The notes below the pieces were generated by a model, which did no database searches, was not told the DNA's origin, and worked only from the letters and a program-made list of their open reading frames with translations. A stretch of DNA of 24,000 nucleotides from Lachnospiraceae bacterium (GTDB lineage Bacteria > Bacillota > Clostridia > Lachnospirales > Lachnospiraceae), in contig JAZRXA010000036.1 of assembly GCA_045599965.1 (NCBI GenBank), forward strand, positions 1 through 24,000, written 5' to 3'. Made by a program: the position numbers and the translations under genes. Below, piece by piece: positions 5,090-20,168 of the stretch. How positions within the stretch are numbered: the first letter of the stretch is position 1; every line of letters begins with the position of its first letter.

Positions 5090-5106
5090 AGTTAGTCTCC
5101 TATTTA

Positions 5107-5160
5107 TTGCAATAGATTACGTTGGAACGTTTGTTGTAGTTTTTTACAACAGATTACGTT
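5107..5160 (-). repeat. Imperfect 17-bp direct repeat (15/17) at the junction of the two ligase-fusion paralogs
   Basis: Plus strand: TTGCAATAGATTACGTT (5107-5123) and TTACAACAGATTACGTT (5144-5160), 37 bp apart. The second copy forms the last codons and stop of the upstream paralog (..KRNLL*). The first copy is intergenic, just upstream of the paralog-1 SD. Confidence 0.6.
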
Positions 5161-7438
5161 TAATCTTACCGTTCGTTGTCTTTGGCAGATCATCCTTAAA
5201 ATCAATAATTCGAGGATATTTATAAGGAGCCGTACGACTTTTAACGTAGTTCTGAATTTCAATTTTTAATTCATCAGAAGGAACAGTTCCTTTTACAAGA
5301 ACGATGCTTGCCTTAACAACCTGTCCTCGGATTTCGTCAGGAGCAGCAGATACACCACACTCTAAGACATAAGGAAGTTCCATAAGTACGCTTTCGATTT
5401 CGAAAGGTCCAATACGGTATCCAGAAGATTTGATGACATCGTCTGCACGACCTACATACCAGAAGTATTCGTCCTCATCGCGCCATGCCAAGTCTCTAGT
5501 ATGATAATAATTATCATGCCATACATCAGCAGTAGCTTCCGGTTCTTCGAAATAGCCTTTGAACAAACCGCAAGGAATGCCATTGCCTGTGTAGATAACG
5601 ATTTCTCCTACTTCACCATCCGCACATTCTTCGCCATCTGCATTAAGAAGATGAACATCGTAGAGCGGACTTGCTTTACCCATGGAGCCAGGTTTTGTCA
5701 TCATTCCGGCAAAGGTACCGATAACCATGGTAGTTTCCGTTTGTCCAAAGCCTTCCATAATAGAAAGACCGGTAGCCTTGCGGAATTGTTCGTAAACTTC
5801 TGGATTCATGGCTTCGCCAGCGATGCTTGCATGTTTCACTGAGCTTAAGTCATATTTGCTGAGGTCCTCTTTGATGAAGAAACGGTACATCGTAGGAGGA
5901 GCACAAAAAGAAGTAATATGATATTGAGCGAACAAAGATAAAATATCGTCCGCATGGAAACGGTCAAAGTCATAAACGAAAGAAGCAGCGCCGTTCATCC
6001 ACTGGCCATAGAGTTTGCCCCAAAGAGCCTTGCCCCATCCAGTATCGGAGATGGTTAGGTGAAGGCCTTCTGGATCCACACAATGCCAGTACTTCGCAGT
6101 CAGGTAATGACCTAACGGATATTTGCAACTGTGAATAGCAGCCTTCGGATAGCCAGAGGTTCCGGAGGTGAAGAGCATGAGCATAGAATCATCACCAGAG
6201 ATAGAATCTTCAGTTCTTACAAAACGGCTAGAATACATATCGTATTCTTCGTCGAAACAATGCCAGCCTTCGCGTTTACCACCGCTGATTATTTTGAGTT
6301 TAACAGTAGGGCATTTCGCAGCAGCTTTTTCTGCCTCGTCTGCACTGGTTCCGAATGCAGCACATACAATTGCTTTTACTTTTGCTGCATTAAACCTATA
6401 TTCAAAATCTTTTTCTACTAATTGGTCAGTTGCAGGAATTGCAATAGCGCCTAATTTATGAAGGCCTATGATTACTGGCCAAAATTCCCAGTTTCTGCGC
6501 ATAACCAGCATTACGCGGTCACCTTTTTCCACACCCAAAGCACGGAAATAGTTCGCAGCTCTTGCAGACATTTTTTTCATGTCAAAGAAAGTGAAGCGTC
6601 TTTCTTTGCGGTTACGGTCTAAATGAACCATAGCAAGACGGTCTGGGTCTTTATCAGCAATTGCATCCACAACATCGAATGCAAAATTGAATTTATCTGG
6701 ATTAGTGAATTTGATGGAAACTGGAGCACCAGTTTCGCTGGTTGCAGTTTCAATGAAATCATTCAGGTAATCGCCGACAGAAACAATAGCAGGAACACTG
6801 TTAAGGTGTTTTTGTACTTCTTCTGCATTCATCATGCGACCATGGTTCCAAATCAGTTCTTCTTCGCCACTTAAAATAACGGCGCAAAAAACAACATCTT
6901 TTCCGCCAATAGCAATCATACCGTGAGGAGTGGAAGAGTTATAGAAGATGCTGTCGCCAGGTCCTAATTCTTCTTCATGATCACCAATCTTAATTCTCAT
7001 GCTACCTTCTAGAACAAGGTCAAACTCTTGACCACCATGTGTTACTTGATGAATCGGCTCATTTTGTTCTGCTTCTGAGTATTCATAACGAACCCAATAA
7101 GGGTCTGCTTTTTTATTTTTAAACAGAGGAGCGATAGACTTAATTTCGATGCCAGGCTCTTTTGCCGTAAGCTGGCCATTGCCGTTACGGGTAATTGCAT
7201 AGCTAGTAAGTCGGGAATTACTTCCTTCTAAAAGTTCGGTAATTTCAATACCAAAACATTGCGCACATTTATGAATAAATGTGAAAGGAAGGTCTGCAGC
7301 TCCCGTTTCATATTGGATGTATTCTTCAGTGCTGATGCCGGTAAGTTCCGCCATATTGGCTTCTGTGTAGTTATAGTCAATTCGAAGCTCACGAATACGT
7401 TGCGCAACTTCCATCAACATATTACTGTTGTCTGCCAT
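5144..7438 (-). CDS. Triple fusion: XRE-family HTH + cupin + AMP-forming medium-chain (MACS/ACSM-like) acyl-CoA synthetase, 764 aa (paralog 2)
   Basis: Same architecture as 2822-5089. HTH: AELTGISTEEYIQYETGAADLPFTFIHKCAQCFGIEITELLEG. Cupin: THGGQEFDLVLEG, GPGDSIFYNSSTPHGM. Ligase: FNFAFDVVD, TSGTSGYPK, GFGQTE, YHTRDLA, GRADDVIKSSGYRIGPFEIESV, PKTTNGKIKR. I placed the start at the ATG (complement of 7436-7438) preceded by GGAGGAG, rather than the tracked TTG at 7459. Confidence 0.85.
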   Translation of the reverse strand: MADNSNMLMEVAQRIRELRIDYNYTEANMAELTGISTEEYIQYETGAADLPFTFIHKCAQCFGIEITELLEGSNSRLTSYAITRNGNGQLTAKEPGIEIKSIAPLFKNKKADPYWVRYEYSEAEQNEPIHQVTHGGQEFDLVLEGSMRIKIGDHEEELGPGDSIFYNSSTPHGMIAIGGKDVVFCAVILSGEEELIWNHGRMMNAEEVQKHLNSVPAIVSVGDYLNDFIETATSETGAPVSIKFTNPDKFNFAFDVVDAIADKDPDRLAMVHLDRNRKERRFTFFDMKKMSARAANYFRALGVEKGDRVMLVMRRNWEFWPVIIGLHKLGAIAIPATDQLVEKDFEYRFNAAKVKAIVCAAFGTSADEAEKAAAKCPTVKLKIISGGKREGWHCFDEEYDMYSSRFVRTEDSISGDDSMLMLFTSGTSGYPKAAIHSCKYPLGHYLTAKYWHCVDPEGLHLTISDTGWGKALWGKLYGQWMNGAASFVYDFDRFHADDILSLFAQYHITSFCAPPTMYRFFIKEDLSKYDLSSVKHASIAGEAMNPEVYEQFRKATGLSIMEGFGQTETTMVIGTFAGMMTKPGSMGKASPLYDVHLLNADGEECADGEVGEIVIYTGNGIPCGLFKGYFEEPEATADVWHDNYYHTRDLAWRDEDEYFWYVGRADDVIKSSGYRIGPFEIESVLMELPYVLECGVSAAPDEIRGQVVKASIVLVKGTVPSDELKIEIQNYVKSRTAPYKYPRIIDFKDDLPKTTNGKIKRNLL

Positions 7439-7467
7439 TTTTTCTCCTCCGAGGGGCAAATTTCTTC

Positions 7468-7622: not shown

Positions 7623-7651
7623 TTGACTGTAAGAAAAAGTGGGTTTATAAT
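7623..7651 (+). promoter_or_regulatory. Sigma-A type promoter for the 10-gene OFOR/ligase/ilvE/PFOR operon
   Basis: TTGACT (7623-7628), 17-nt spacer, consensus TATAAT (7646-7651). This gives a leader of about 100 nt to the ATG at 7757. It is divergent from the minus-strand promoter, with the two -35 boxes about 85 bp apart. Confidence 0.6.
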
Positions 7652-7756: not shown

Positions 7757-8461
7757 ATGAATGCTTTTTTAAAAGCCATGGCCGAGGGCCCAAGAAAAAT
7801 TGCAATTACGGGTCATTTTGGAAGTGGCAAAACAGAGGTCAGCGTATCTCTTGCCACGGCCTTAGCAAAAGAAAATATTCCAAACTTGGCGTTATGCGAT
7901 CTGGATCTTGAAAATCCCTATTTTCGTTCCAGAGAACGACAAAGCCTGATGGAGGCTTCGAAAATCAAAGTTTATTCCGATCCTTTCAAAGGAAAGAATG
8001 GAAGCGAACTTCAGACCATCGATGCAGCTATTAGGGCGCCTTTGGAAGATGAAACTTGCAGAGTCATCTTAGATTGCGGAGGAGATGCTACGGGAGCCAT
8101 GATTTTAAATCAATTCAGCCCGTATATGAAAGAGGATGCTCAGCTAATCAGCGTTGTAAATTGTAACCGTCCGGGAACTAATACACCGCAAAAAGCTGCT
8201 GATCAGATAAACAATACGATGGAAACTACCGGAATAAAAGTTACGGGTATCATATCCAATGCGCATCTGATTCGCTACACAACAGCCCAAACCGTAATGG
8301 ATGGCATGGAATTTACTAAAGAGGTTTCGCGCCTTACGGGCATCCCGGTACTTTGTGCATGTTGTATGGAAAGCCTAGTAGAAGAACTTTCCGGTTGTGA
8401 TTTTGATATTTTCCCGATTGGAATGTACATGAGGGATAGTTATTTAGATAAAAAGGTTTAA
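7757..8461 (+). CDS. Uncharacterised P-loop NTPase (SIMIBI-like), first gene of the OFOR operon
   Basis: Canonical Walker A ITGHFGSGKTE near the N-terminus. A candidate Walker B/switch is RVILDCGGDATG. The layout loosely recalls G3E/MinD-type maturation NTPases (compare UreG liESGGDNL), but the NKxD position reads SNAH. No confident family assignment is possible by eye. Confidence 0.6.
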   Translation: MNAFLKAMAEGPRKIAITGHFGSGKTEVSVSLATALAKENIPNLALCDLDLENPYFRSRERQSLMEASKIKVYSDPFKGKNGSELQTIDAAIRAPLEDETCRVILDCGGDATGAMILNQFSPYMKEDAQLISVVNCNRPGTNTPQKAADQINNTMETTGIKVTGIISNAHLIRYTTAQTVMDGMEFTKEVSRLTGIPVLCACCMESLVEELSGCDFDIFPIGMYMRDSYLDKKV

Positions 8462-8490
8462 AAACCATAAAAATATTCAGGAGGCTTGCA

Positions 8491-8721
8491 ATGAAGAGAC
8501 GTTTTAAAGTCGTTTTCGATGGAGACAAATGCAAAGGCTGTGGCTTATGCATTTCCTTCTGCCCAAAAAAAATCCTTGCCTTTGACCCGGAGGTTAATTC
8601 CAAAGGATATCATCCGGCAGGAATCACAGATGTAACAGAGTGCATCGGCTGCACAAGTTGTGCGACCATGTGCCCAGATTGCTGCATCAGTATTTATGAA
8701 TTAGAGGAGAAAGAAGAATGA
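8491..8721 (+). CDS. 2-oxoacid:ferredoxin oxidoreductase delta subunit (2x[4Fe-4S] ferredoxin)
   Basis: Two CxxCxxCxxxCP-type motifs: CKGCGLCISFCP and CIGCTSCATMCP. 76 aa, AGGAGG SD. Its stop overlaps the next start (ATGA at 8718-8721). Confidence 0.85.
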   Translation: MKRRFKVVFDGDKCKGCGLCISFCPKKILAFDPEVNSKGYHPAGITDVTECIGCTSCATMCPDCCISIYELEEKEE

Positions 8722-9794
8722 GTAAAGTACTTATGAAGGGCAATGAAGCCTTTGGAGAAGCTGCAATACGTGCCGGCTGTAAGTGCTATTTCGGCTATCC
8801 TATTACACCACAGAACGAAGTTCCTGAGTATATGAGCCATGAACTGCCAAAGGCAGGTGGCGCATTTGTACAGGCAGAAAGCGAACTGGCTGCTGTTAAC
8901 ATGGCCTATGGTGCTGCAGCTGCAGGCGGTCGTGTATTTATTTCCACGAGTTCTCCAGGTCTTGCTTTAATGCAGGAAGGACTTGGATTTATATGCAGTA
9001 CGGAAGTTCCAATCGTTGCTCTAAATGTATCCAGAGGCGGCCCTGGTGTAGGTGGTATCCAGCCAGGTCAAGCAGACTATTTCCAGGCAACTAGAGGTGG
9101 CTACAATGGTGACGCTAAAATTCCGGTTTTCGCACCTTCAGGAATTCAAGAATGCGTTGACATGATTTATGAAAGTTTCGATATTGCTGAGAAATACCGT
9201 AACCCGGTACTCATTCTTGCAGACGGCATGATTGGACAGATGATGGAACCGGTAGAACTTCCACCACAAAAGGAAATTACCCCAGTTAACCAAATCAGCG
9301 AAAAGAAACCATGGGCAATCACCGGAACTGATAATCATGACGGAAGAAACGTTATTTTCTCGCTACGTTTGGTACCGGATGTATTAGAGTCTCATGTCGA
9401 GCATATGTTTGAGAAATACGAAGAAGCAGAAAAGGAACTGGTTCGTTACAGTTCTATGAATTTGGAAGATGCAGAAATCGTATTTGTTGCTTTCGGAACC
9501 ATGTCCCGCTTATGCGCAGAAGCCATTGAGATTCTAGAGGAACGCGGTATTAAAGCTGGATTGATTCGTCCAATCAGCTTATGGCCATTTCCAGATAAAG
9601 CCTTTGAAGAAATCGGTCCAAAGACAAAAGTTGTTATTTCAACCGAGCTTAGCATGGGCCAGATGATTCAGGACGTTAAGGCAGCAATAAGCGGTCGTTT
9701 ACCTGTAAGACTGATTAACCGTACAGGCGGAATTGTTCCGTCCTCTCTTGAAATTGCTGACAGAGCAATCAAACATTTGGAGGAGCTGAAATGA
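8718..9794 (+). CDS. 2-oxoacid:ferredoxin oxidoreductase alpha subunit (VorB/KorA/OorA type)
   Basis: LMKGNEAFGEAAIRAGCKCYFGYPITPQNE, QAESELAAVNMAYGAAAAGGR and TSSPGLALMQE are typical for OFOR alpha. 358 aa. Translationally coupled on both sides. Confidence 0.85.
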   Translation: MSKVLMKGNEAFGEAAIRAGCKCYFGYPITPQNEVPEYMSHELPKAGGAFVQAESELAAVNMAYGAAAAGGRVFISTSSPGLALMQEGLGFICSTEVPIVALNVSRGGPGVGGIQPGQADYFQATRGGYNGDAKIPVFAPSGIQECVDMIYESFDIAEKYRNPVLILADGMIGQMMEPVELPPQKEITPVNQISEKKPWAITGTDNHDGRNVIFSLRLVPDVLESHVEHMFEKYEEAEKELVRYSSMNLEDAEIVFVAFGTMSRLCAEAIEILEERGIKAGLIRPISLWPFPDKAFEEIGPKTKVVISTELSMGQMIQDVKAAISGRLPVRLINRTGGIVPSSLEIADRAIKHLEELK

Positions 9795-10534
9795 AAACTA
9801 TATTTGAACCAACAAAGGGAATGCTCCCTGTAGATACAAGCTATTGTCCAGGATGTTCTCATGGTATTGCACATCGTCTTATCATGGAAGTTTTGGAAGA
9901 AAGAGGAGATTTAGGACGCACCATCGGTGTTGTTCCAATCGGATGCTCTATTAATGCTCATAACTTCATGAACATTGATATGTGCGAGTCCACTCACGGA
10001 AGAGCTCCTGCTATTGCAACAGGCATACGTCGCGTTCACCCAGATAAAGTTGTTTTTACTTATCAGGGCGATGGAGACTTAGCTTCCATTGGTGCTGGTG
10101 AAATTGTTCATGCAGCTCATAGAGGCGAGAAGTTTACTACATTCTTTATTAACAATGCGATTTACGGTATGACAGGTGGACAGATGGCTCCTACTACTTT
10201 GATTGGTCAGAGAGCTACTACTGCTGTTAATGGACGTACCATTGAGCAGGCCGGCCTTCCTTTAAAAGTCTGCGAAATGCTATCAACCATTCCTGGCGCA
10301 GTATTTGTAGAAAGAGTAATTTTGAACACTCCTGCAAATGTAAGAAAAGCAAAGAAAGTTATTGAGAAAGCATTTGATATTCAAGAAGCAAAACTAGGTT
10401 TCACCTTTATTGAATTCCTTTCTGCATGTCCTACGAACTGGGGAATGTCACCAGAAGACGCATTAAAATGGGTTGCTTCAGATATGGCAGAATATTATCC
10501 AGTCCAAAATTTTAGAACTCCGGAGGGCTTTTGA
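9791..10534 (+). CDS. 2-oxoacid:ferredoxin oxidoreductase beta subunit (TPP and Fe-S binding)
   Basis: N-terminal CPGCSHG motif. The TPP-binding segment is YQGDGDLASIGAGE...NNAIYGMTGGQ. 247 aa. Confidence 0.85.
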   Translation: MKTIFEPTKGMLPVDTSYCPGCSHGIAHRLIMEVLEERGDLGRTIGVVPIGCSINAHNFMNIDMCESTHGRAPAIATGIRRVHPDKVVFTYQGDGDLASIGAGEIVHAAHRGEKFTTFFINNAIYGMTGGQMAPTTLIGQRATTAVNGRTIEQAGLPLKVCEMLSTIPGAVFVERVILNTPANVRKAKKVIEKAFDIQEAKLGFTFIEFLSACPTNWGMSPEDALKWVASDMAEYYPVQNFRTPEGF

Positions 10535-10536
10535 TT

Positions 10537-11067
10537 ATGAAGATGAAAATGTTTTTTGCCGGTAGTGGTGGCCAGGGAACCTTAGCAATCGGCCAAATGA
10601 TTGCAAAAGCAGCAATGGAAGAAGGAAAAGAAGTAACTTGGCTTCCTTCATATGGACCGGAAATGCGTGGTGGTACGGCAAACTGTACAGTTGTTGTTTC
10701 GGACAAGCCAATTAGTTGTCCGTTAATCAACACCGCAGATATGTTAGTAACGATGAACTTGCCATCTCTTGTTAAATTTGAGCCAATCGTTGTTCCAAAC
10801 GGACTGATTATGATTAATAGCTCTTTAGTTAGCATTGATACATCTAGAAGTGATGTAAAATCTGTAAAAGTTGCAGCAAACGATATTGCTGCAGAGCTGG
10901 GAAACGAAAAAGCAGCCAATATGATTATGTTGGGTGCCATTTTGAATGAGACTCATGTTGTAGAACCGGATACTATCCGCAAAGAAATCGAGCATATGTT
11001 CTCAGGCCCTAAGGAAAAATTCCTTGCCATGAACATGGAAGCTTTTGAACATTACCTTACAAAATAG
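10537..11067 (+). CDS. 2-oxoacid:ferredoxin oxidoreductase gamma subunit
   Basis: FAGSGGQGTLAIGQMIAKAA and SYGPEMRGGTANCTVV are typical for OFOR gamma. I placed the start at the in-frame ATG at 10537, 9 nt after GGAGGG (10522-10527), rather than the tracked TTG at 10531. Confidence 0.8.
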   Translation: MKMKMFFAGSGGQGTLAIGQMIAKAAMEEGKEVTWLPSYGPEMRGGTANCTVVVSDKPISCPLINTADMLVTMNLPSLVKFEPIVVPNGLIMINSSLVSIDTSRSDVKSVKVAANDIAAELGNEKAANMIMLGAILNETHVVEPDTIRKEIEHMFSGPKEKFLAMNMEAFEHYLTK

Positions 11068-11085
11068 TTTAAGGAGAAAAATTCA

Positions 11086-12498
11086 ATGAAAAACATCCAT
11101 ATCAGTGACGTTACATTAAATACAGCACTTGATTCTGGGCGCAATGCCCTGAATTTTCGCGAGAAAATTGAGATCGCGAAGTTGTTAGATCGACTAGATG
11201 TGGATGTTATCGAAGCTGGGGCAATTGTAAATGAAAAGACCGATAGCCTATTAATAAAGGCAATCTCTACCGCGGTAAAAACTTCTTGTATTGCGGTACT
11301 TGTTGACCCAGAAGATAAAGAAAGTGTAGCAAAGGTACATGCTGCGCTGAAGGATGCTCCTTCTTATAGAATGCAGGTGGTAATACCTGTAAGTACGGTA
11401 CAGATGGAATACATTTGTCATAGAAAACCGGCAGCTGTATTAGAATTGATAAAAGAGTCTGTAAGCGAGTGCAAACAGTATGCAGAAAATGTAGAGTTTA
11501 TCGCAGAAGATGCAGTACGCAGCGATCAAGATTTTCTATTCACAGCTATAGATGTGGCTTTAGAAGCAGGGGCAAATGTAATTACAGTCTGTGACGCAGA
11601 AGGAAGCTTGCTTCCAAGTGAAGTATTTGAAAAAATTTCGGACATACGTAAAAAAGTACCGGAGAATGTAACTTTGGGAGTTCGTTGCGCAAATGATCTT
11701 TATATGGCTACCGCTAGTTGTGCAGCTGCTATCCGTGCAGGCGCAGATGAAATCAAGACATGTGCCGGCGGTATAAAGACAACCGAATTAGATAAAATCG
11801 TAGCAGTACTTTCTTCTAGAGGAGACAGCTTAAATGCATTCACCAACGTTAAGACTACAGAAATGCAACGAGTAATTTCTAAAATTCATGAAATCTGCGA
11901 AACTACTCGTTCAGACCATTCACCATTTGATTTTGGCGTTCGTGAAGAAGAAGGCATATTCCTAACTGCGAAGGATGATATGGCAGCAGTTACTCAGGCT
12001 GCAAAACAGCTAGGCTACGAGTTAAGTGATGAAGACGCAGTAAGTGTTTATAATGCGTTTGTTCATATCGCAGAAAAAAAAGAGCAAGTTGGCCAAAGAG
12101 AATTAGATGCCATCATTGCATCTGCAGCAATGCAGGTTCCTGCAACATATTCTATTGAAAATTATATTATTAACTCGGGAAACAAAATTACTGCAAGTGC
12201 CCATATGAAATTAGTCAAAGATGGTAAAGTTTTAGAAAGCGTTTGCCTTGGTGATGGTCCAATCGATGCTGCGTTCCTAGCAATCGAGCAAATTTTGGGA
12301 AGACATTTTGAACTGGATGATTTCCAAATTAAATCTGTAACCGAAGGACATGAGGCGATGGGTGAAACTGTCGTACGTCTTCGTTCTGGCGGAAAGCTTT
12401 ATTCCGGACGAGGCATCTCTACCGACATTATTGGTAGCGGCATTCGCGCTTACATTAATGCAGTTAATAAAATTGTCTTCGAGGAGGAAGAAAAATGA
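11086..12498 (+). CDS. 2-isopropylmalate synthase-like protein (HMGL-like TIM barrel + LeuA regulatory domain) with degenerate active site; predicted non-catalytic
   Basis: The N-terminus aligns to the LeuA IFDTTLRDGEQSPG...VDIIEAG motif but reads ISDVTLNTALDSGR...VDVIEAG. The HxH metal motif (VHCHNDLG) reads VRCANDLY (R200/C201/A202, nt 11683-11691). The C-terminal domain keeps LeuA_dimer hallmarks: GDGPIDAAFLAIEQI, HEAMGETVVRL, GRGISTDIIGSGIRAYINAVNK. Confidence 0.75.
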   Translation: MKNIHISDVTLNTALDSGRNALNFREKIEIAKLLDRLDVDVIEAGAIVNEKTDSLLIKAISTAVKTSCIAVLVDPEDKESVAKVHAALKDAPSYRMQVVIPVSTVQMEYICHRKPAAVLELIKESVSECKQYAENVEFIAEDAVRSDQDFLFTAIDVALEAGANVITVCDAEGSLLPSEVFEKISDIRKKVPENVTLGVRCANDLYMATASCAAAIRAGADEIKTCAGGIKTTELDKIVAVLSSRGDSLNAFTNVKTTEMQRVISKIHEICETTRSDHSPFDFGVREEEGIFLTAKDDMAAVTQAAKQLGYELSDEDAVSVYNAFVHIAEKKEQVGQRELDAIIASAAMQVPATYSIENYIINSGNKITASAHMKLVKDGKVLESVCLGDGPIDAAFLAIEQILGRHFELDDFQIKSVTEGHEAMGETVVRLRSGGKLYSGRGISTDIIGSGIRAYINAVNKIVFEEEEK

Positions 12499-14972
12499 GA
12501 CTTACCTTCTCAGCAAGAGGGTGGCACAGTCTTTCCTGGCAGGAACTGATTGATACTACCTTAGAAAATAAATATGAAGGGCTGGAGCTTTACAACGTGC
12601 ATAAATATGATGCACTAGTTGGAAAGGGCGGTCCTTTAAATGAATATAATATTCAGGCAACGTCTCGGTTTTTAAGAAACAATAAACTGACCGTTCCATG
12701 TATTGATACCTCTTTGGATATCAGCTCTGACAGTAAAGAGGTTATGAGCTGCATTCTTGAAACTATTAAAATTGCAGCTGCGCTGAAAAGTCCTTATGTT
12801 GCTGTGAAAGCGAAGGCCGATGCAGAAGAGCAAGTTTATGCTAACGTTGAAAAGATTTTGCCGGAAGCAGAACGTTTAGGAATTACACTTTTGATTTCTA
12901 CGAAAGGAATCTATGCGGATTCTGCAAAACTACGTAGTCTGATGAACTTTTTTGCAAATGATAATCTTGCAGTTTTATGGGATTCTTTGCATACCTACCG
13001 AGATAAAAAGGAAACTCCGGCAAATACCATTACCAATCTCGGAGCTTATGTGAAACATGTTCATTTAAGAGACTTAAACGATGATGGAACCTATAACCTT
13101 CCAGGCGAAGGAGCTTTCCCAATTGATGATTTAATGAGAGCCTTAGGCTCAGTAGACTATAATGGATTTATTTCTCTGGTTTGGAAACCGGAATATATCA
13201 GCGAGATTACGAATCCGGGAATTGTATTGCCATTCTTTAGCAACTACATGAACCGTTTTGGTGATACCCGTGGCAAGAAGCCAACACTGTATCTAAATCA
13301 TGACGGAAGCGGTCAGTATGTTTGGAAAAAAGATGAATTAATTTCTCTTACTTTTTCTCAGATTCTTGACCGTATGGCTTATGAATTTCCAGATCAGTAT
13401 GCCTTCCGTTATACGACCTTGGACTATACTCGCACCTATCGCGAGTTTAAAGAAGATGTTGACCGCTTCGCCCGTGCTCTAATGAGTTTGGGTGTGAAGC
13501 ATGGATATAAAGTTGCCGTATGGGCAACAAACATTCCTGCCTGGTATATTGCATTCTGGGCAGCAGCAAAAATCGGTGCCGTTTTGGTAACCGTAAATAC
13601 AGCCTATAAAATTCATGAGGCAGAGTATTTATTAAGACAGTCAGATACTCATACTCTGATTATGATTGATGAATGCAAAGACTCAAATTACAAAGAAATT
13701 ATTAACGAACTTTGTCCGGAAATTAAAAAGTCGAAGCCTGAAAAACCGTTACATTGTAAGGCTCTTCCGTTCTTAAGAAATGTAATTACGGTAGGCTTTT
13801 CTATGCCGGGCTGCTTAACCTTTGAGCAGGCTATGGACTGCTGTGAAAATGTTTCTCCTCATGAACTGGCAAAAATGGCAGCAGAGGTTGAGGTAAATGA
13901 TGTAGTAAATATGCAGTATACCTCTGGCACCACGGGTTTTCCGAAGGGAGTTATGCTGACTCACTATAACGTAGTAAATAACGGAAAATGTATTGGAGAC
14001 CGACTGGGACTTTCTACAGCGGACCGTATGATGATTCAGGTACCGATGTTCCATTGCTTTGGGATGGTACTTTCTATGACCGCCTCCATGACTCATGGGA
14101 CCACACTTTGTCCACTTCCATATTTTTCTGCAAAGAGTTCTTTGGCTTGCATAAATCAGGAAAAGATTACTTGCTTTAATGGCGTTCCGACCATGTTTAT
14201 TGCAATGTTTAATCATCCAGATTACAAAAAGACCGATTTTTCCCATATGAGAACAGGCATTATGGCGGGTGCTGGATGTCCTCCGGAACTGATGCGACGT
14301 GCGGCAAGAGACGACGAAATGCATATGAGCGGTATTGTTTCGGTTTATGGCCAAACCGAGTCCGCTCCGGGAAATACAATGTCTTCATGGACAGACCCAT
14401 TGGATAAGAGATGCGATACCGTTGGTAATGCGTTCCCACATATTCAGTGTAAGATTATCGATCCGGAGACCGGAGAAATTCTCCCACCAGGACAAAATGG
14501 TGAATTTTGTTCCAGAGGCTATAACACTATGAAGGGATATTATAAAATGCCAGATGCGACGGCAGCTGCAATAGATGCCGATGGATGGCTTCATTCAGGT
14601 GACTTAGCTTGCTGTGACGAAAATGGCTATTATAAGATTACCGGTCGTCTAAAAGACATGATTATTCGTGGCGGTGAAAACATCTATCCGAAGGAAATCG
14701 AGGAATTCATTTATACCCATGAAGATGTTCAAGATGTTCAGGTAATAGGTGTTCCGGATAAGACTTATGGCGAAGAAGTTATGGCTTGCGTCATCGCAAA
14801 AGAAGGAAGCGACTTAACTAAGGAGAAGCTTCGTGAATATATTACTAAGCGGCTGGCTCGCCATAAAGTTCCGAAATACATTGAATTAATGGACGAGTTT
14901 CCAATGAATGCGGCGGGAAAAGTTTTGAAATATAAGATGAGAGAAGATGCAGCAAAAAGGCTAGGTCTTTAA
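12495..14972 (+). CDS. Fusion: xylose-isomerase-like (AP_endonuc_2) TIM barrel + AMP-forming acyl-CoA ligase (ACSF2/YngI/FadD-like), 825 aa
   Basis: N-terminal ~260 aa show the pattern YEGLELY, IAAALKSPYVAV, LGITLLIST, LAVLWDSLHTY, VKHVHLRD, YNGFISLVW. C-terminal ~560 aa carry YTSGTTGFPKGVMLTH, VYGQTES, LHSGDLA, GRLKDMIIRGGENIYPKEIEE and the catalytic-Lys motif AAGKVLKYK. ATGA overlap with the upstream gene. Confidence 0.8.
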   Translation: MRLTFSARGWHSLSWQELIDTTLENKYEGLELYNVHKYDALVGKGGPLNEYNIQATSRFLRNNKLTVPCIDTSLDISSDSKEVMSCILETIKIAAALKSPYVAVKAKADAEEQVYANVEKILPEAERLGITLLISTKGIYADSAKLRSLMNFFANDNLAVLWDSLHTYRDKKETPANTITNLGAYVKHVHLRDLNDDGTYNLPGEGAFPIDDLMRALGSVDYNGFISLVWKPEYISEITNPGIVLPFFSNYMNRFGDTRGKKPTLYLNHDGSGQYVWKKDELISLTFSQILDRMAYEFPDQYAFRYTTLDYTRTYREFKEDVDRFARALMSLGVKHGYKVAVWATNIPAWYIAFWAAAKIGAVLVTVNTAYKIHEAEYLLRQSDTHTLIMIDECKDSNYKEIINELCPEIKKSKPEKPLHCKALPFLRNVITVGFSMPGCLTFEQAMDCCENVSPHELAKMAAEVEVNDVVNMQYTSGTTGFPKGVMLTHYNVVNNGKCIGDRLGLSTADRMMIQVPMFHCFGMVLSMTASMTHGTTLCPLPYFSAKSSLACINQEKITCFNGVPTMFIAMFNHPDYKKTDFSHMRTGIMAGAGCPPELMRRAARDDEMHMSGIVSVYGQTESAPGNTMSSWTDPLDKRCDTVGNAFPHIQCKIIDPETGEILPPGQNGEFCSRGYNTMKGYYKMPDATAAAIDADGWLHSGDLACCDENGYYKITGRLKDMIIRGGENIYPKEIEEFIYTHEDVQDVQVIGVPDKTYGEEVMACVIAKEGSDLTKEKLREYITKRLARHKVPKYIELMDEFPMNAAGKVLKYKMREDAAKRLGL

Positions 14973-15023: not shown

Positions 15024-16097
15024 ATGGAAATTAGAATTGAAAAGAACCCTAATCCGGCTCAAAAACCTACAGATGAAAGCAAACTTGGTTTTGGCAAAAT
15101 ATTTACAGACCACATGTTTGTTATGGATTGGTACAAAGGAAAAGGTTGGGAAGATGCTAGAATCATTCCTTTTGGAAACCTTAGCGTGCATCCAGCATCA
15201 ACAGTTTTTCATTATGCCGTTGAAATTTTTGAAGGCCTAAAGGCTTATCGTGCAGCAAATGGAAGTATCCGTTTGTTCCGTCCAATTGAAAATGCAAGAC
15301 GTATGAACAACTCTGCAATCCGTATGGCAATGCCTACGATTCCAGAAGAAGATATTGTTCAGGCAATCGAAACCTTAGTAACCATCGACAAAGACTGGGT
15401 TCCTCATGAAGATGGAACAAGCCTTTACATTCGTCCATTTATGATTGGTGATGATGAGCACCTTGGCGTACATGGTATTTCTCACGCTCGTTTCATGATT
15501 ATTCTTAGCCCATCTGGAGCTTACTACCCAGAAGGAATGGCTCCTGTAAAGATTATGATTGAAGACGAAGACGTTCGTGCCGTACGTGGTGGTACAGGCT
15601 TCACAAAATGCGGTGGAAACTATGCAGCATCTCTTCGTGCCGGAGACCGTGCAGAAGAAAAAGGCTTCACACAGGTTCTGTGGCTGGATGGCGTAGAAAG
15701 AAAATATATCGAAGAAGTTGGAGCTATGAACATCATGTTCAAGATTAACGGAAAAGTAGTTACTCCGGAACTGAATGGTTCTATACTTCCTGGAATTACC
15801 CGTAAGAGTATCTTAGAACTTCTTCGTAATAATGGCGCAGACGTAGAGGAAAGAAAAATCAGTATTGATGAAGTTATTGAAGCTGCAGAAAACGGAGGCT
15901 TGGAAGAAGTTTGGGGCTGTGGAACCGCAGCAGTTGTTTCTCCAGTAGGCTGGCTTGCTTTTGAAGATAAGATGTTCTGCATCAACAACGGAGAAATCGG
16001 CGAATTAACACAAAAACTTTATGACGAACTCACAGCAATTCAATGGGGCAAAAAAGAAGATCCATTCGGATGGACCTATACACTAGTTGAGGAATAA
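15024..16097 (+). CDS. ilvE: Branched-chain amino acid aminotransferase (fold type IV, long form)
   Basis: FGKIFTDHMF, YAVEIFEGLKAYR, LYIRPFMIG, the PLP-lysine context GGTGFTKCGGNYAASL and GITRKSILEL. GGAGGA SD (15012-15017). Confidence 0.9.
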   Translation: MEIRIEKNPNPAQKPTDESKLGFGKIFTDHMFVMDWYKGKGWEDARIIPFGNLSVHPASTVFHYAVEIFEGLKAYRAANGSIRLFRPIENARRMNNSAIRMAMPTIPEEDIVQAIETLVTIDKDWVPHEDGTSLYIRPFMIGDDEHLGVHGISHARFMIILSPSGAYYPEGMAPVKIMIEDEDVRAVRGGTGFTKCGGNYAASLRAGDRAEEKGFTQVLWLDGVERKYIEEVGAMNIMFKINGKVVTPELNGSILPGITRKSILELLRNNGADVEERKISIDEVIEAAENGGLEEVWGCGTAAVVSPVGWLAFEDKMFCINNGEIGELTQKLYDELTAIQWGKKEDPFGWTYTLVEE

Positions 16098-16100: not shown

Positions 16101-19100
16101 ATGGCAAAAGAAATGATTACTGTTGATGGCAATACAGCCACAGCGGATATAGCATATGAATTTTCAGAAGTAGCGGCAATCTATCCAATTACGCCGTCTT
16201 CACCAATGGCTGGGTCCACAGACGCATGGAGCGCAAATGGCAGAAAGAATATGTTCGGCCAGCAGGTAAAATTGGTGGAAATGCAGTCAGAAGCTGGCGC
16301 AATCGGCGCAGTACATGGTGCCCTTCAGACCGGTGCTCTTGCAGTTACCTATACGTCTAGCCAGGGCCTTATGTTGATGATTCCTACTCTTTACCGTATC
16401 GTAGGGGAGAGGCTTCCTGCAGTTCTTCATGTAGCGGCAAGAACCGTAGGTACTCATGGTATGAGTATTTTTGGAGATCATAGTGATGTTATGGCATGCA
16501 GACAAACAGGAGCAGCTCTTCTTAGTTCCGGCAGCGTTCAGGAAGCAGCAGAAATTGCAGCCGTTGCCCATCTTTCTGCTCTTAAAGGAAGTACTCCGTT
16601 TATTCATTTCTTTGATGGATTCCGTACTTCTCATGAGCTTTGTAGAATCGAGGCTCCGGATAAAAAAGCTTTAGCAGCACTAATGGATAAAGAAGCTCTG
16701 AAACGTTTTCGTAGATATGCCCTGAACCCAGAGCATCCAATGCTTAGAAACACCGTTCAAAATGACGACGTATTCTTCCAAACCCGTGAAGCAGCAAACC
16801 ATTTCTATAATGACCTTCCTGGTATTGTTGAAAAATATCTTCATGAAGTAAATAAAATTTGCGGACGCAATTATGAACTGTTTAACTATTACGGAGACCC
16901 AGAAGCTACCGATGTAATCGTAGCAATGGGCAGCGTAAGTGGAACGGTATGCGAAGTAGTTGACTGGCTTCGCAGTCAGGGCCGTAAAGTTGGCTATGTT
17001 CAGGTTCATTTATATCGTCCGTTCTCTATAAAACATTTTCTTAAAGCTCTTCCTGAAACAGTACAGCGTATCGCGGTATTGGACCGTACAAAAGAGCCGG
17101 GAGCATCAGGAGAGCCTTTGTATCAGGACATTTGCACCTCCCTTATGGGAAGCGAACGAAAAATTTCTGTAATCGGAGGAAGATACGGACTTAGCTCAAA
17201 AGATACGGATCCTTCCCAGATTGCAGCTGTATTTAATAACCTTGCTAAGGAGAATCCAATTAAGGGATTCACCATCGGCATTAATGATGATGTAACCCAC
17301 TTAAGTTTAGAAAATGCAAAAATGGATGGCTTCAACCCAGGCAACATTAGGTTGGCTAAGTTCTGGGGACTTGGCGGCGATGGAACTGTTGGAGCAAACC
17401 ATAATACGGTTCAAATTCTTGGCGACTGCGCAAATATGTATTCACAGGCATATTTCCAGTATGATGCGAAGAAATCCTTCGGTGTTACCAAATCTCATTT
17501 GAAGTTTTCACCGGAGCCAATCCGCGGCTCTTACTATGTAAAATCTGCAGACTTTGTGGCATGCCACAATCAAAGTTTTATAAGCCAGTTTGATATCGTA
17601 GATGAAATTAAGCCAGGCGGAATTTTCTTGTTGAACTGTGATTTAAAAGATGAAGAACTCGAATCCATCATTCCTGGAAAAGCAAGAAGACTTCTTGCCC
17701 AGAATGATATCCATTTCTATACAATTAACGCTACCAAGATTGCAGATGAATTAGGTCTTGGAAGCCATACCAACACTGTACTTCAGGCAGCTTTCTTCGC
17801 CTTGACCAATCTGATTCCATTAGATGAAGCTTTAGGAGAAATGAAAAAAGCAGCCCAAACTACTTATGCAGCAAAAGGTGAAGAAGTAATTCAGAAAAAT
17901 ATTGACGCCATTGATGCAGGCGCCAACGCTCTTCATAAAGTAGAGATTCCAAAGTCCTGGTTCCAGGCAGAAGATGATCCTGCTCCAGATGAGTCCGCAC
18001 TTCCAGAAGTAGTAAGAAAAATTCTCTTTCCGGTTAACCGCCAAAAAGGTGATGACATTCCGGTAAGCACGTTTATTGGCCGCGAGGATGGTGTAATTGA
18101 ATTCGGTCTTACCGCGTTTGAAAAGAGAGGAATCGCAGTACATATTCCAAACTGGGATGCAGAAAAATGCCTTCAGTGCAACCTTTGCTCCTTTGTTTGT
18201 CCACATGCAGCGATTCGTCCATACCTCTTAAACGAAGAGGAAGTTCAAAATGCTCCAGAAGGATATTCGACAGTTCCTGCCAAAGGCGCAGACGGACTGC
18301 ACTTTACAGTTAAAATTTCCACCTATGACTGCACCGGTTGCGGAAGCTGTGTCAGCGTATGTCCAAAAGAGGGCGCTCTAAAAATGGAGCCGGCAAATCT
18401 TAAGGAGGAAGACAAAGTGGCTTGGGAATACGGCCTGAATCTTTCCGATAAAGGCGATGTATTCAATCTGTATTCTGTTAAGGGCAGCCAGTTTAAACAG
18501 CCTTTAGTAGAATTCTCAGCAGCATGTGCAGGCTGCGGCGAAACTCCATATGCAAAGCTATTAACTCAGCTGTTTGGCGATAGAATCTATTGGGCAAACG
18601 GTACCGGATGCTCCCAAGCATGGGGCGCACCAATGCCACAGATTCCTTACACCGTAAATAAAGATGGCAGAGGGCCTGCTTGGACCAACAGTTTATTTGA
18701 AAACAACGCAGAGCTGACTTTAGGTATGTACCTATCTGTATCTCAACAAAGAGATGCGCAAAAAGCTAGAATTAATCAGCTGATTGAAATGGCTCAAGGC
18801 GAACTTAAAGAAGCATGCATCAAGTTCATCGATGCTTTTGATAACTTTGAAGAATCTAGAAAAACTGCAGACGCAGTCATCAAACTTTTGGAAAACGAAG
18901 TCGACAAAGGAAATACGCTTATCGATGAAATCTATGATAATAAAGACTACATGTCAAAGAAGACTTTCTGGATGTATGGCGGCGATGGTTGGGCATACGA
19001 TATCGGATTTGGTGGCTTAGACCATGTAATTGCAACGGGACTGAATATTAACTGTTTCGTAATTGATACGGAAGTATATTCCAATACCGGCGGACAGAGT

Positions 19101-19595
19101 TCGAAAGCTACTCCTCTTGGCGCAGTTGCACAGTTTGCATCTGCAGGCAAGGGCACCGGCAAGAAAGACTTAGGCGCAATTATGATGAGTTATGGAAATG
19201 TGTATGTAGCTCAGGTAGCCATGGGTGCAAATCCAAACCAGTTGATTAAAGTCTTAAAAGAAGCTGAAGAATTTGATGGACCTTCTGTAATCGTTGCTTA
19301 CACTCCATGTACGGCTCATGGAATTAAATCTGGAATGTGCTCAGCACAGCAAGAGATGAAGAAAGCGGTTCAAAGTGGATATTTCAATCTATATCATTAT
19401 GATCCAAGATTAGAGCATCCAATGAAAGTGGATAGTGCACAGCCAACCCTTTCCTATCAGGACTTCTTAAGCGGAGAAGTTCGTTATGAGTCCTTGAAGA
19501 CAACCTTCCCAGAGAGAGCTAAAGAACTGTTTGGCGAAGCAGAAGAAGCAGCGAAACAAAAATATGAGAAATATAAGCAATTAGAATTGCAGTAA
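16101..19595 (+). CDS. nifJ: Pyruvate:ferredoxin (flavodoxin) oxidoreductase, single-polypeptide PFOR
   Basis: 1164 aa. AAIYPITPSSPMA, GLGGDGTVGANHN, ferredoxin domain CLQCNLCSFVCPHAAIRP / CTGCGSCVSVCP, and TPP domain GGDGWAYDIGFGGLDH...DTEVYSNTGGQ. The start is 3 nt after the ilvE stop, with the SD inside ilvE. Confidence 0.92.
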   Translation: MAKEMITVDGNTATADIAYEFSEVAAIYPITPSSPMAGSTDAWSANGRKNMFGQQVKLVEMQSEAGAIGAVHGALQTGALAVTYTSSQGLMLMIPTLYRIVGERLPAVLHVAARTVGTHGMSIFGDHSDVMACRQTGAALLSSGSVQEAAEIAAVAHLSALKGSTPFIHFFDGFRTSHELCRIEAPDKKALAALMDKEALKRFRRYALNPEHPMLRNTVQNDDVFFQTREAANHFYNDLPGIVEKYLHEVNKICGRNYELFNYYGDPEATDVIVAMGSVSGTVCEVVDWLRSQGRKVGYVQVHLYRPFSIKHFLKALPETVQRIAVLDRTKEPGASGEPLYQDICTSLMGSERKISVIGGRYGLSSKDTDPSQIAAVFNNLAKENPIKGFTIGINDDVTHLSLENAKMDGFNPGNIRLAKFWGLGGDGTVGANHNTVQILGDCANMYSQAYFQYDAKKSFGVTKSHLKFSPEPIRGSYYVKSADFVACHNQSFISQFDIVDEIKPGGIFLLNCDLKDEELESIIPGKARRLLAQNDIHFYTINATKIADELGLGSHTNTVLQAAFFALTNLIPLDEALGEMKKAAQTTYAAKGEEVIQKNIDAIDAGANALHKVEIPKSWFQAEDDPAPDESALPEVVRKILFPVNRQKGDDIPVSTFIGREDGVIEFGLTAFEKRGIAVHIPNWDAEKCLQCNLCSFVCPHAAIRPYLLNEEEVQNAPEGYSTVPAKGADGLHFTVKISTYDCTGCGSCVSVCPKEGALKMEPANLKEEDKVAWEYGLNLSDKGDVFNLYSVKGSQFKQPLVEFSAACAGCGETPYAKLLTQLFGDRIYWANGTGCSQAWGAPMPQIPYTVNKDGRGPAWTNSLFENNAELTLGMYLSVSQQRDAQKARINQLIEMAQGELKEACIKFIDAFDNFEESRKTADAVIKLLENEVDKGNTLIDEIYDNKDYMSKKTFWMYGGDGWAYDIGFGGLDHVIATGLNINCFVIDTEVYSNTGGQSSKATPLGAVAQFASAGKGTGKKDLGAIMMSYGNVYVAQVAMGANPNQLIKVLKEAEEFDGPSVIVAYTPCTAHGIKSGMCSAQQEMKKAVQSGYFNLYHYDPRLEHPMKVDSAQPTLSYQDFLSGEVRYESLKTTFPERAKELFGEAEEAAKQKYEKYKQLELQ

Positions 19596-19738: not shown

Positions 19739-19824
19739 ATGATACATGATGGGGGCAATTGTACTTTTTTTAAAAAGAGCCCAAAGACAGAAAAAAATTA
19801 GCATGAAATATTATGGAGGTGCGT

Positions 19825-20133: not shown

Positions 20134-20168
20134 CTAGAATCACTTTCGTATATTAAGGAGGCTTAAAA

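Follow-up and report, generated by a model that had tools for sequence, protein, structure and literature searches.

A predicted non-catalytic 2-isopropylmalate synthase paralogue, probably the leucine sensor of isovalerate-to-leucine salvage in gut and rumen bacteria

The window, by which we mean the whole 24,000-nucleotide stretch of DNA analysed here, contains a forward-strand operon in which the gene for a predicted non-catalytic paralogue of 2-isopropylmalate synthase (IPMS, LeuA) is enclosed by genes for oxidoreductases, an acyl-CoA ligase and an aminotransferase. We refer to the product of 11086-12498 as pLeuA, which is our own label. The features of the locus are as follows:

2822-5089 and 5144-7459, - strand: two divergently transcribed paralogues, each combining HTH (XRE), cupin and MbcS-like short branched-chain acyl-CoA ligase parts
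7623..7651, + strand: best promoter-like site upstream of the operon, TTGACT-17-TATAAT, 11/12 matches (consensus match only)
7757..11067, + strand: upstream operon genes as a block, with ends overlapping or 18-30 nt apart
7757-8461, + strand: ParA/CbiA-like P-loop protein, upstream in the pLeuA operon (domain/family matches)
8491-8721, 8718-9794, 9791-10534 and 10531-11067, + strand: delta, alpha, beta and gamma subunits, respectively, of a VOR-type OFOR
11071..11077, + strand: Shine-Dalgarno sequence AAGGAGA of pLeuA, 8 nt 5' of the ATG (sequence read directly)
11086..12498, + strand: pLeuA, 470-aa predicted non-catalytic IPMS paralogue (ORF, translation, Pfam, NCBIfam, AF2, Foldseek, dN/dS)
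12481..12498, + strand: translational-coupling junction between pLeuA and ligase (sequence read)
12495..14972, + strand: obligate partner, an 825-aa fusion (Pfam AP_endonuc_2, AMP-binding and AMP-binding_C; PRK12583-like, 693 bits)
12495-13334, + strand: N-terminal xylose-isomerase-like TIM barrel of the fusion (Pfam; TIM model and fold search)
13335-14972, + strand: AMP-forming acyl-CoA ligase part of the fusion (Pfam; intact ANL motifs)
15024..16097, + strand: IlvE, branched-chain amino acid aminotransferase, last step to leucine (NF009897, 485 bits against a cut-off of 307)
16101..19595, + strand: single-chain PFOR/NifJ-type 2-oxoacid:ferredoxin oxidoreductase (TIGR02176, 1646 bits), a candidate for the reductive carboxylation step, with activity inferred

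The pLeuA frame starts with ATG and is present both in the list of open reading frames and in translation. It begins 18 nt past the gene of the OFOR gamma subunit, in the middle of the operon and after the VOR genes, and its Shine-Dalgarno sequence lies downstream of the VorC stop codon (11065-11067).

Pfam recognised two domains in pLeuA, HMGL-like (PF00682, aa 4-260, 119 bits) and LeuA_dimer (PF08502, aa 335-463, 104 bits). The protein stayed under the cut-off of every NCBIfam IPMS model, the top one being NF002086 with 316 bits against a cut-off of 532, and NCBI names it ‘hypothetical protein’. Family members, where named by any source, are called ‘hypothetical protein’ or after the regulatory domain only. 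Within the gene, the following parts were delimited:

11086..11865, + strand: predicted dead (beta/alpha)8 barrel, aa 1-260 (alignment, AF2, Foldseek)
11113..11133, + strand: T-L-N-T-A-L-D replacing T-L-R-D-G-E-Q, with the DRE-motif Arg, the metal Asp and the Glu gone (alignments)
11683..11691, + strand: R-C-A replacing the H-x-H metal ligands (alignments)
11866..12087, + strand: accessory region, aa 261-334, subdomain I truncated, subdomain II helices kept (alignment, AF2)
12088..12474, + strand: C-terminal LeuA_dimer regulatory domain, the best-conserved part of pLeuA (Pfam, column conservation)

pLeuA has the LeuA fold, consisting of barrel, linker and LeuA_dimer domain. Its AF2 model (pLDDT 82.7, with values below 50 at residues 14-19, which overlap the former TLRDGEQ, and 274-289, in subdomain I) was matched by Foldseek to 3EWB with a TM-score of 0.92 and a barrel rmsd of 1.9 Å, as well as to full-length Mycobacterium tuberculosis LeuA (3FIG/1SR9) with E ~1e-22, in agreement with the IPMS homology asserted in the initial annotation of this gene. 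The order of domains, HMGL-like barrel, accessory helices and LeuA_dimer, is that of LeuA (Escherichia coli b0074; M. tuberculosis 1SR9/3FIG; Neisseria meningitidis 3RMJ) and of CimA; identity to E. coli LeuA is 28%, and regulatory-domain signatures are common to both. Unlike LeuA and CimA, pLeuA lacks the DRE Arg, Asp and Glu, the HxH motif, four residues of GERAGN and the His motif of subdomain I, and its genomic partner is an acyl-CoA ligase instead of the leuBCD found with LeuA.

These losses were verified column by column. The initial annotation had read T-L-N-T-A-L-D at aa 10-16 and R-C-A at aa 200-202 as the remains of the two catalytic motifs, and both residues and coordinates were confirmed in the translation and in the alignments, as was the presence in the translation of the three regulatory signatures it had listed, GDGPIDAAF, HEAMGETVVRL and GRGISTDIIGSGIRAYINAVN. 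In an ungapped HMMER alignment to the barrels of the solved IPMS structures 3EWB, 3RMJ and 3EEG, TLNTALD falls under TLRDGEQ and RCANDL under HCH(N/D)DL, and a MAFFT alignment with E. coli LeuA places them in identical columns; since the two agree, no shifted Arg, Asp or His rescues the site. The catalogue of losses drawn up earlier was correct but short, as two deletions seen in the MAFFT alignment had been missed. One removes four residues of the NGIGERAGN loop and is universal in the 83 members tallied below; the other, of ~27 residues, takes out the subdomain-I ‘AFAHSSGIHQDG’ segment and spans the His motif H-x-S-G-I-H (‘HSSGIH’; His379 in M. tuberculosis numbering).

Column tallies were made on 83 distinct members of the pLeuA family, none of which has the metal site. 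At the position of the metal Asp they have Q (48), E (8), R (7), T (6), M (3) or N (2), i.e., Asp is absent from the six commonest residues, which account for 74 of the 83. The His202 column is occupied by S36/R17/E7/G5/A5/K3 (73 of 83 tallied) and the His204 column by S58/A16/N3/C2/V2/K1 (82 of 83). In smaller alignments, one member (P0089) retains His at the first His position (VHCSD). The columns of the former TLRDGEQ vary across the family; the DRE-Arg position is basic in 75/83 members, and the window lineage is without a basic residue there (N12). In the M. tuberculosis enzyme, R80A/K mutations abolish activity (PMC10464499). On the evidence of these alignments, the catalytic losses are systematic and not a matter of chance. 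Within the limits of sequence evidence, the earlier proposal that pLeuA is a pseudoenzyme is supported: the family lacks each of the catalytic elements tested, yet the gene is under strong purifying selection; the absence of any catalytic activity is inferred.

The family is large. A collection of 185,579 species genomes yielded 596 or more matching stretches, and the carriers there are mainly gut and rumen Bacillota, along with Eggerthellaceae and Bacteroidales; no report on it was found in the literature searched. Frames are intact (464-474 aa) across the members examined. Against the nearest relative (L008), dN/dS of the gene is 0.054 overall (~0.05), with 0.071 for the dead barrel and 0.021 for the regulatory domain, and by these estimates the gene is under strong purifying selection, without decay. 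The high overall similarity to the IPMS model might be taken to mean that pLeuA is a true LeuA which has been mis-aligned, or else a decaying, functionless leuA pseudogene. We consider this practically ruled out, as three independent alignments return the same columns, and intact frames, the number of matching stretches, the low dN/dS and the conservation of both synteny and T-box control all contradict it.

The regulatory domain deserves separate consideration. Columns with at least 95% conservation number 45 of 118 in this domain versus 38 of 260 in the barrel. No variation is seen in G-D-G-P-I-D-A or at the position matching E. coli G462. G462D is the E. coli LeuA allele used for removing leucine feedback (PMC6345581); in CimA, the LeuA_dimer domain binds its amino acid even when separated from the rest of the protein (PMC13381585). 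Judged by its conserved columns, the leucine-type regulatory domain of pLeuA is intact and highly conserved; there are no binding data, and leucine-contact residues were not compared singly.

The barrel has invariant residues of its own. S103, Q106-M107-E108-Y109, D142, R145 and D170, all family-specific, are situated on the former active-site face, and together with the mostly basic DRE-Arg position they fit a remodelled ligand site or even a new activity as well as a docking surface, a point against the sensor model. On that account, pLeuA might be a positive subunit that is indispensable, or else a metal-independent enzyme with a new function; its pocket would bind isovalerate, isovaleryl-CoA or 2-oxoisocaproate, and the protein would set the specificity of the ligase, activate it or catalyse a new step, the regulatory domain being of secondary importance. 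Purifying selection on the barrel points the same way. However, the metal ligands are gone, subdomain I has lost its acetyl-CoA/enolisation motif by deletion, the former TLRDGEQ loop is variable and predicted to be disordered, the window lineage has lost even the basic residue, and the best-conserved part is the regulatory domain, not the barrel. We regard such a role as unlikely, albeit worth keeping in mind.

Directly downstream of pLeuA, the 825-aa fusion is proposed to be an isovalerate-CoA ligase, its substrate being inferred from context alone. AMP-forming ANL enzymes favour the activation (anabolic) direction, and this direction is consequently favoured for the ligase, which is AMP-forming. 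Its Shine-Dalgarno sequence GAGGAGG (12481-12487) lies inside the C-terminal Glu codons of pLeuA, and its ATG (12495-12497) overlaps the pLeuA stop codon TGA (12496-12498) as ATGA. In 85/85 loci the fusion is the gene directly after pLeuA; the two genes overlap by 4 nt in 49 of these loci and abut in 9, and two reverse look-ups starting from the TIM domain of the ligase found pLeuA directly upstream both times. Universal retention and tight coupling of this kind could also be seen if pLeuA were needed for the activity or specificity of the ligase and not just as its inhibitor. No natural pLeuA-ligase fusion was seen among the homologues examined. Two candidates for stand-alone TIM proteins (P0155 and P0179) are located on long contigs, but these come from long-read assemblies with frameshifts, which disrupt the PFOR gene as well, and a 570-aa homologue (P0026) considered as a fusion had a mis-called start.

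A PDB fold search with the TIM domain of the ligase revealed no close functional analogue, the best matches (sugar epimerases, AsbF, IolI) having a TM-score of ~0.7. In the window lineage this domain has lost S135, L165 and V229, otherwise conserved in its family, a point against the sensor model. In a mirror-tree comparison, the pLeuA barrel and the TIM domain of the ligase have pairwise distances that correlate with r = 0.84, or with a partial r of 0.66 when the AMP domain is controlled for; for the pLeuA barrel versus the AMP domain, controlling for TIM, the partial r is 0.13. This hints at an association of the two barrels, but the signal is weak, may reflect just two fast-evolving domains and is suggestive only.

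The other genes of the window accompany pLeuA less regularly. IlvE occurs within 10 kb of pLeuA in 30/86 loci, and PFOR is directly 3' of the pLeuA-ligase pair or of IlvE in 13/86. Co-occurrence with OFOR genes was surveyed as suggested at the outset: no more than 29/86 loci have a VOR-type OFOR (VorB) within 10 kb of pLeuA, and its strand and place in the gene order differ between loci. When the 10 kb around each pLeuA were searched by tblastn with E. coli LeuA as the query, none contained a true leuA.

With respect to these partners, the initial annotation had suggested that pLeuA might serve either the OFOR or the ligase, as feedback sensor or as scaffold, and had noted translational coupling on the downstream side. 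The coupling holds; of the two partners, the ligase, always the next gene, is the better supported. Regulation of the adjoining VOR-type OFOR instead of the ligase would suit the 18-nt distance between the two genes in the window, yet it has very little to commend it given the scarcity and variable placement of VorB, and the fact that pLeuA is mostly the first gene after a T-box. pLeuA might instead be a passive scaffold, insensitive to amino acids, which bridges the ligase to PFOR or VOR (perhaps to IlvE) and so channels isovaleryl-CoA. Channelling hetero-complexes that include DRE-TIM barrels do exist; structural matches of pLeuA include three of the DmpG-type aldolase-dehydrogenase kind (1NVM, 4JN6 and 8IH7), and OFOR genes are often nearby. 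Such a role is nonetheless improbable in our opinion: the most conserved part of the protein is a ligand-binding regulatory domain in which the leucine-feedback residues of LeuA are invariant, and PFOR and VOR are missing within 10 kb in many loci, the ligase never.

Leader RNAs lend independent support to the link with leucine made in the initial annotation. A T-box core motif precedes pLeuA in 61/86 related loci, and Rfam confirms a T-box in eight of these relatives' leaders. The specifier codon, determined by helix-anchored parsing and reading by eye, is CUG, CUC or CUA in 61/61, all of them leucine codons; neighbouring reading frames gave stop codons or inconsistent amino acids and were discarded. 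T-boxes located 5' of MbcS-like ligases in the relatives carry isoleucine (35) or valine specifiers (21 parsed automatically and 2 by eye), and the leucine set of pLeuA never crosses with the isoleucine/valine set of these ligases. From the leucine T-box leaders we infer that the operon of the relatives is turned on under leucine shortage. This evidence comes from relatives only, because Rfam found no T-box in the window at gathering threshold or at E <= 1e-3; the lack of a T-box and the mid-operon position of pLeuA in the window count against the sensor model. Induction at leucine starvation would also suit a protein needed for leucine supply, i.e., the positive subunit considered above.

Leucine, isoleucine and valine T-boxes alongside IlvE and PFOR or VOR make the locus read as a salvage system in which branched-chain fatty acids are turned into the corresponding amino acids. 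pLeuA is probably the leucine sensor of isovalerate-to-leucine salvage in these gut and rumen bacteria, since it always precedes the ligase, in an operon which relatives are inferred to turn on at low leucine. As to mechanism, we lean, by no wide margin of confidence, towards a non-catalytic LeuA paralogue acting as a HisZ-like subunit that confers leucine feedback on the isovalerate-CoA ligase; binding, complex and activity are all inferred. The operon would make leucine from exogenous isovalerate: the ligase would convert isovalerate to isovaleryl-CoA, PFOR or VOR would carboxylate the latter reductively to 2-oxoisocaproate, and IlvE would transaminate this to leucine. pLeuA would dimerise via its regulatory domains, as LeuA does, and dock on the ligase, probably barrel to barrel with the N-terminal TIM domain; with leucine in the site of the regulatory domain, it would throttle the ATP-consuming committed step. 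T-box and pLeuA combined would give salvage both leader-RNA control and end-product allostery, the same two layers as in the canonical LeuA route.

HisZ is a catalytically dead HisRS paralogue and the regulatory subunit of the short-form ATP phosphoribosyltransferase HisG. The likeness lies in a dead enzyme paralogue used as an in-trans end-product sensor of a committed enzyme of an amino acid pathway, although for pLeuA complex and allostery are inferred, it derives from LeuA and not from an aminoacyl-tRNA synthetase, and its partner is an ANL ligase. The AHAS regulatory subunit IlvH/IlvN (valine feedback) is likewise a separate, small subunit conferring branched-chain amino acid feedback on a catalytic partner, and IlvH serves as a stand-alone valine sensor (PMC13381585). 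IlvH differs from pLeuA in that its fold is of the ACT type and it lacks a dead catalytic domain.

Branched-chain fatty acids are abundant in the gut and are growth factors of fibre-degrading rumen bacteria, and a route from them to amino acids has been known biochemically for decades. Allison and co-workers reportedly found, in the 1960s to 1980s, that rumen bacteria use reductive carboxylation to build leucine, valine and isoleucine out of isovalerate, isobutyrate and 2-methylbutyrate. The chemistry predicted for our locus, acyl-CoA ligase followed by 2-oxoacid:ferredoxin oxidoreductase and aminotransferase, is the same, as is the rumen and gut habitat. That work was biochemical, and in the literature searched we found no gene-level assignment, T-box regulon or LeuA-like subunit for the route.

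From the locus and its relatives comes a concrete set of genes open to testing, namely IlvE, PFOR or VOR and three ligases whose T-box specifiers assign each of them to a single amino acid. pLeuA itself would exemplify allosteric control moved between pathways, the sensing domain being kept, the barrel disabled and a new committed enzyme placed under control. If this is true, many MAGs from gut and rumen would need new annotation and altered metabolic models, e.g., as regards predictions of leucine auxotrophy. A wider reading, which we advance only tentatively and which may well fail, is a three-branch regulon from isovalerate, isobutyrate and 2-methylbutyrate to leucine, valine and isoleucine, where each branch would have its ligase under an amino-acid-specific T-box and a dedicated non-catalytic sensor module. 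The leucine sensor would be an exapted dead LeuA working in trans on a ligase-fused sugar-isomerase-like TIM barrel, making it a new class of allosteric pseudoenzyme subunit and the regulon the first gene-level definition of the reductive-carboxylation route.

The two HTH-cupin ligases of the window are likely its valine and isoleucine salvage branches, their orthology to the Ile-box and Val-box types being half resolved. MbcS is the best NCBIfam match of both (407 and 442 bits, below the cut-off of 850). In Staphylococcus aureus, MbcS is a short branched-chain acyl-CoA synthetase that activates branched short-chain acids (PMC10026030, PMC11167679). Compared with it, the window ligases add an N-terminal HTH and cupin module, and the ligase paired with pLeuA belongs to another, PRK12583-like ANL clade.

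The LeuA-like protein pLeuA is encoded by the following ORF:

11086-12498, + strand, pLeuA, 470 aa

Pfam assigns aa 4-260 to an HMGL-like barrel and aa 335-463 to a LeuA_dimer domain, and the NCBIfam isopropylmalate synthase (IPMS) models match it far under their cut-offs (top score 316 bits vs 532). In HMMER alignments with solved IPMS barrels, TLNTALD falls under TLRDGEQ with an ungapped N-terminus, RCANDL falls under HCH(N/D)DL, and NGIGERAGN is gapped. Alignment with E. coli LeuA (MAFFT; reference taken from NC_000913) reproduces these columns and reveals a ~27-residue deletion that takes out the subdomain-I segment 'AFAHSSGIHQDG'. The coordinates and motifs of the initial annotation were exact, its substitutions hold column by column, and the catalytic losses exceed those it had noted. 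In the M. tuberculosis enzyme, mutation of the motif Arg (R80) abolished activity (PMC10464499). Its fold and ancestry place pLeuA in the LeuA/CimA lineage, yet it fails all catalytic criteria tested for membership, and the name isopropylmalate synthase should not be applied to it.

The AF2 model of pLeuA (pLDDT 82.7) has a confident barrel and retains the subdomain II helices; the former TLRDGEQ loop (residues 14-19) and the subdomain I remnant (residues 274-289) are disordered. With Foldseek, the barrel matches LeuA 3EWB (TM 0.92, rmsd 1.9 A); over its full length the model matches M. tuberculosis LeuA, leucine-bound 3FIG included.

Protein search returned thousands of relatives, the best 120 of which measure 464-491 aa save one outlier, share 53-86% identity and, where named at all, are called 'hypothetical' or 'alpha-IPMS regulatory domain-containing protein'. 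The length of the outlier, P0026 (570 aa), was attributed to a mis-called start. The cluster holding the pLeuA of the window consists of proteins from Lachnospiraceae MAGs, annotated as 'hypothetical protein'. A scan of one genome per species with two peptide patterns specific to the family gave at least 600 stretches, at least 596 of them confirmed; among the matches listed, the sources were Oscillospiraceae, Faecousia, Acutalibacteraceae, Lachnospiraceae, Christensenellales, Peptococcaceae, Tissierellia, Solobacterium, Eggerthellaceae/Coriobacteriia and Bacteroidales, nearly all of them gut or rumen MAGs.

Across 83 distinct members, Asp is missing from the six commonest residues of the metal-Asp column (Q48, E8, R7, T6, M3, N2), the two His columns are mostly S/R and S/A, respectively, and the GERAGN deletion is present in all (83/83). 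Conservation is highest in the regulatory domain, where 45 of 118 columns reach ≥95%, vs 38 of 260 in the barrel. Compared with L008, the nearest relative (93% identical), the whole gene has a dN/dS of 0.054, the barrel 0.071 and the regulatory domain 0.021. The family is real and conserved, and this is no decaying gene. The barrel has invariant residues of its own on the old active-site face (S103, Q106-M-E-Y109, D142, R145 and D170), and the Arg position of TLRDGEQ is Lys or Arg in 75/83 members (Asn in the window). These residues, together with the conserved basic residue in place of the DRE Arg, suggest that a ligand site has been remodelled, and a positive or catalytic role for pLeuA cannot be excluded.

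In the window, pLeuA starts 18 nt after four-subunit VOR-type OFOR genes. The next gene overlaps it by 4 nt (ATGA) and has its Shine-Dalgarno within the terminal Glu codons of pLeuA, which bears out the downstream translational coupling suggested earlier. Its 825-aa product, hereafter the ligase, joins an N-terminal xylose-isomerase-like TIM barrel to an AMP-forming acyl-CoA ligase with intact ANL motifs. We examined 86 pLeuA loci (6 via exact-protein look-ups, 80 via genome scan): the ligase fusion follows pLeuA directly on the same strand in 85/85 loci with enough downstream DNA, overlapping by 4 nt in 49 and abutting in 9, and reverse look-up from TIM-domain matches (n=2) again placed pLeuA directly upstream. 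Other neighbours recur within 10 kb in shuffled order and on either strand, namely VOR (29/86), the ParA-like companion of VOR (33/86), IlvE (30/86), PFOR (13/86) and HTH-cupin ligases (43/86). The conserved unit is therefore pLeuA plus the ligase and not the OFOR; of the two partners originally offered, OFOR or ligase, gene order favours the latter. Support for the family and for its genomic logic is strong.

The acidic C-terminus of pLeuA (window 12469-12498) is conserved (…FEEEEK; …YEE(G/E)E in relatives). Its coding sequence, GAGGAGGAAGAA, doubles as the Shine-Dalgarno of the overlapping ligase gene, and part of this conservation may therefore act at the RNA level.

The ligase TIM domain (window 12495-13334) has a generic xylose-isomerase-like fold (pLDDT 91.6, best PDB TM about 0.7); no relatives of it were found outside the ligase fusion family. 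Of 79 members, 49 share the exact family pattern K135, D163, H165, H166, H188, H190, D193, E229; Lys mostly takes the place of the first canonical metal Glu. Three pattern positions are decayed in the window and L008 (S/A135, L/Q165, V229), and an Eggerthellaceae subgroup reads E-N-Y-E-L-H-D-E instead.

Pairs of pLeuA and ligase at ~50% identity were found in three phyla, which suggests their horizontal transfer among gut anaerobes. The loci outside Bacillota include:

L016, L027, L034, L035, L039: Bacteroidales
L056, L060, L062, L073-L075: Eggerthellaceae/Coriobacteriia

A T-box core motif was found upstream of pLeuA in 61/86 loci, and none where pLeuA follows IlvE or VorC, nor in Bacteroidales loci. 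In each core-motif-bearing Bacillota or Actinomycetota locus tested, a complete Rfam T-box leader ends 60-170 nt upstream of pLeuA, scoring at or above the gathering score in L001, L004, L009, L022, L011, L056 and L063 and just under it in L013, L006 and L010 (E between 1e-13 and 1e-18). Among the Actinomycetota copies, L056 and L073 have a T-box, and L060, L062, L074 and L075 have no core motif. Specifiers were read by anchoring on the Stem-I basal helix and the conserved GAG, a geometry described by Wels et al. (PMC2494555). The pLeuA specifier is CUG, CUC or CUA in 61/61 loci, often with the canonical purine next; adjacent frames gave stop codons or inconsistent amino acids and were rejected.

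A relaxed scan of the same loci gave 60 further T-boxes, all upstream of HTH-cupin ligase genes, with Ile (AUC 34, AUA 1) or Val specifiers (GUC 12, plus 2 read by eye, and GUA 9). Seventeen loci carry one Ile and one Val box before two different HTH-cupin paralogues, and among the T-boxes of the 86 loci, Leu boxes never stand before an HTH-cupin ligase, nor Ile or Val boxes before pLeuA. Proteins behind Val boxes are nearer the window paralogue at 2822-5089 (22/24), and those behind Ile boxes split ambiguously (18 vs 15). T-boxes induce amino-acid supply genes in response to uncharged cognate tRNA, and in every case tested the specifier agreed with function (PMC2494555); on this basis we assign one of the three ligases each to the supply of Leu, Ile and Val. 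Our literature search found no description of pLeuA, the ligase fusion or this triple T-box regulon.

Rfam detected no T-box in the window; the operon there apparently begins ahead of the ParA-like gene, at a promoter-like site (7623-7651). Elsewhere, a core motif precedes a ParA-like/VOR operon in L055 (about 5100-5352, +; specifier not confidently readable). Motifs with apparent specifiers that face genes past the locus ends occur in L017 (about 63, -; Leu), L054 (about 16211, +; Val) and L020 (about 270, -; Ile), and L067 has a further core motif (about 1331, -).

AMP-forming ligases run in the activation direction, and a reductive-carboxylation route from isovalerate to leucine is known from rumen bacteria. 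With the ligase, IlvE and a ferredoxin-dependent 2-oxoacid oxidoreductase in one transcription unit, the simplest inferred pathway leads from isovalerate through isovaleryl-CoA and 2-oxoisocaproate to leucine, and the ligase would be its ATP-consuming committed step. pLeuA keeps the leucine-binding module of LeuA, including the G-D-G-P-I-D-A loop and the glycine equivalent to E. coli G462, from which leucine binding by pLeuA is inferred. In LeuA, leucine bound where the regulatory domains dimerise makes the enzyme more rigid (PMC9860122), G462D removes feedback in E. coli (PMC6345581), and the isolated homologous domain of CimA binds isoleucine (PMC13381585). On the strength of the inferred pathway, the retained module and binding by the CimA domain, we propose that pLeuA acts in trans as a leucine-sensing subunit of the ligase, by analogy with HisZ and HisG. 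Its mode of action, inferred here, most likely resembles that of pseudoenzyme regulatory subunits such as HisZ or IlvH. In pairwise distances, the pLeuA barrel follows the ligase TIM domain (r = 0.84; partial r = 0.66 after correction for the AMP domain) more closely than it follows the regulatory domain of pLeuA (r = 0.69) or, in partial correlation, the AMP domain (r = 0.13). This gives only a weak hint of a barrel-to-barrel interface, as shared fast rates could mimic the pattern.

Several neighbours deserve mention. A 234-aa P-loop protein (window 7757-8461), with only weak CbiA/ParA/NUBPL-like matches below Pfam cut-offs, is encoded directly upstream of the VOR delta gene, and in 33 related loci a homologue sits beside VOR genes. 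A role in Fe-S maturation or as an OFOR accessory factor is possible. Behind the ligase and co-transcribed with IlvE lies a full-length PFOR/NifJ (window 16101-19595, 1164 aa, 1646 bits), whose gene falls under the Leu T-box in several relatives; this may be a 2-oxoisocaproate-specialised paralogue and not the housekeeping enzyme for pyruvate. The HTH-cupin ligases of the window are two tandem paralogues (2822-5089 and 5144-7459, both on the - strand; 755 and 771 aa) that join, in an unusual arrangement, an XRE-type HTH, a cupin and an MbcS-like AMP-forming ligase, and the fused HTH-cupin may serve as a built-in sensor or autoregulator. Among NCBIfam models, HTH-cupin ligases best match the S. 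aureus branched short-chain acyl-CoA synthetase MbcS (PMC10026030). Ordinary-looking genes flank the region:

638-2714, upstream: Sua5/YrdC, LMW phosphatase-like, RpiB, dCMP/cytidine deaminase
19813-24000, downstream: V-type ATPase subunits (H-like, I, K/c, E)

A Clostridiales-1 sRNA (RF01699, 81 bits), probably unrelated to pLeuA, lies ~9.5 kb upstream of it in a Lachnospiraceae MAG (L041, 331-509).
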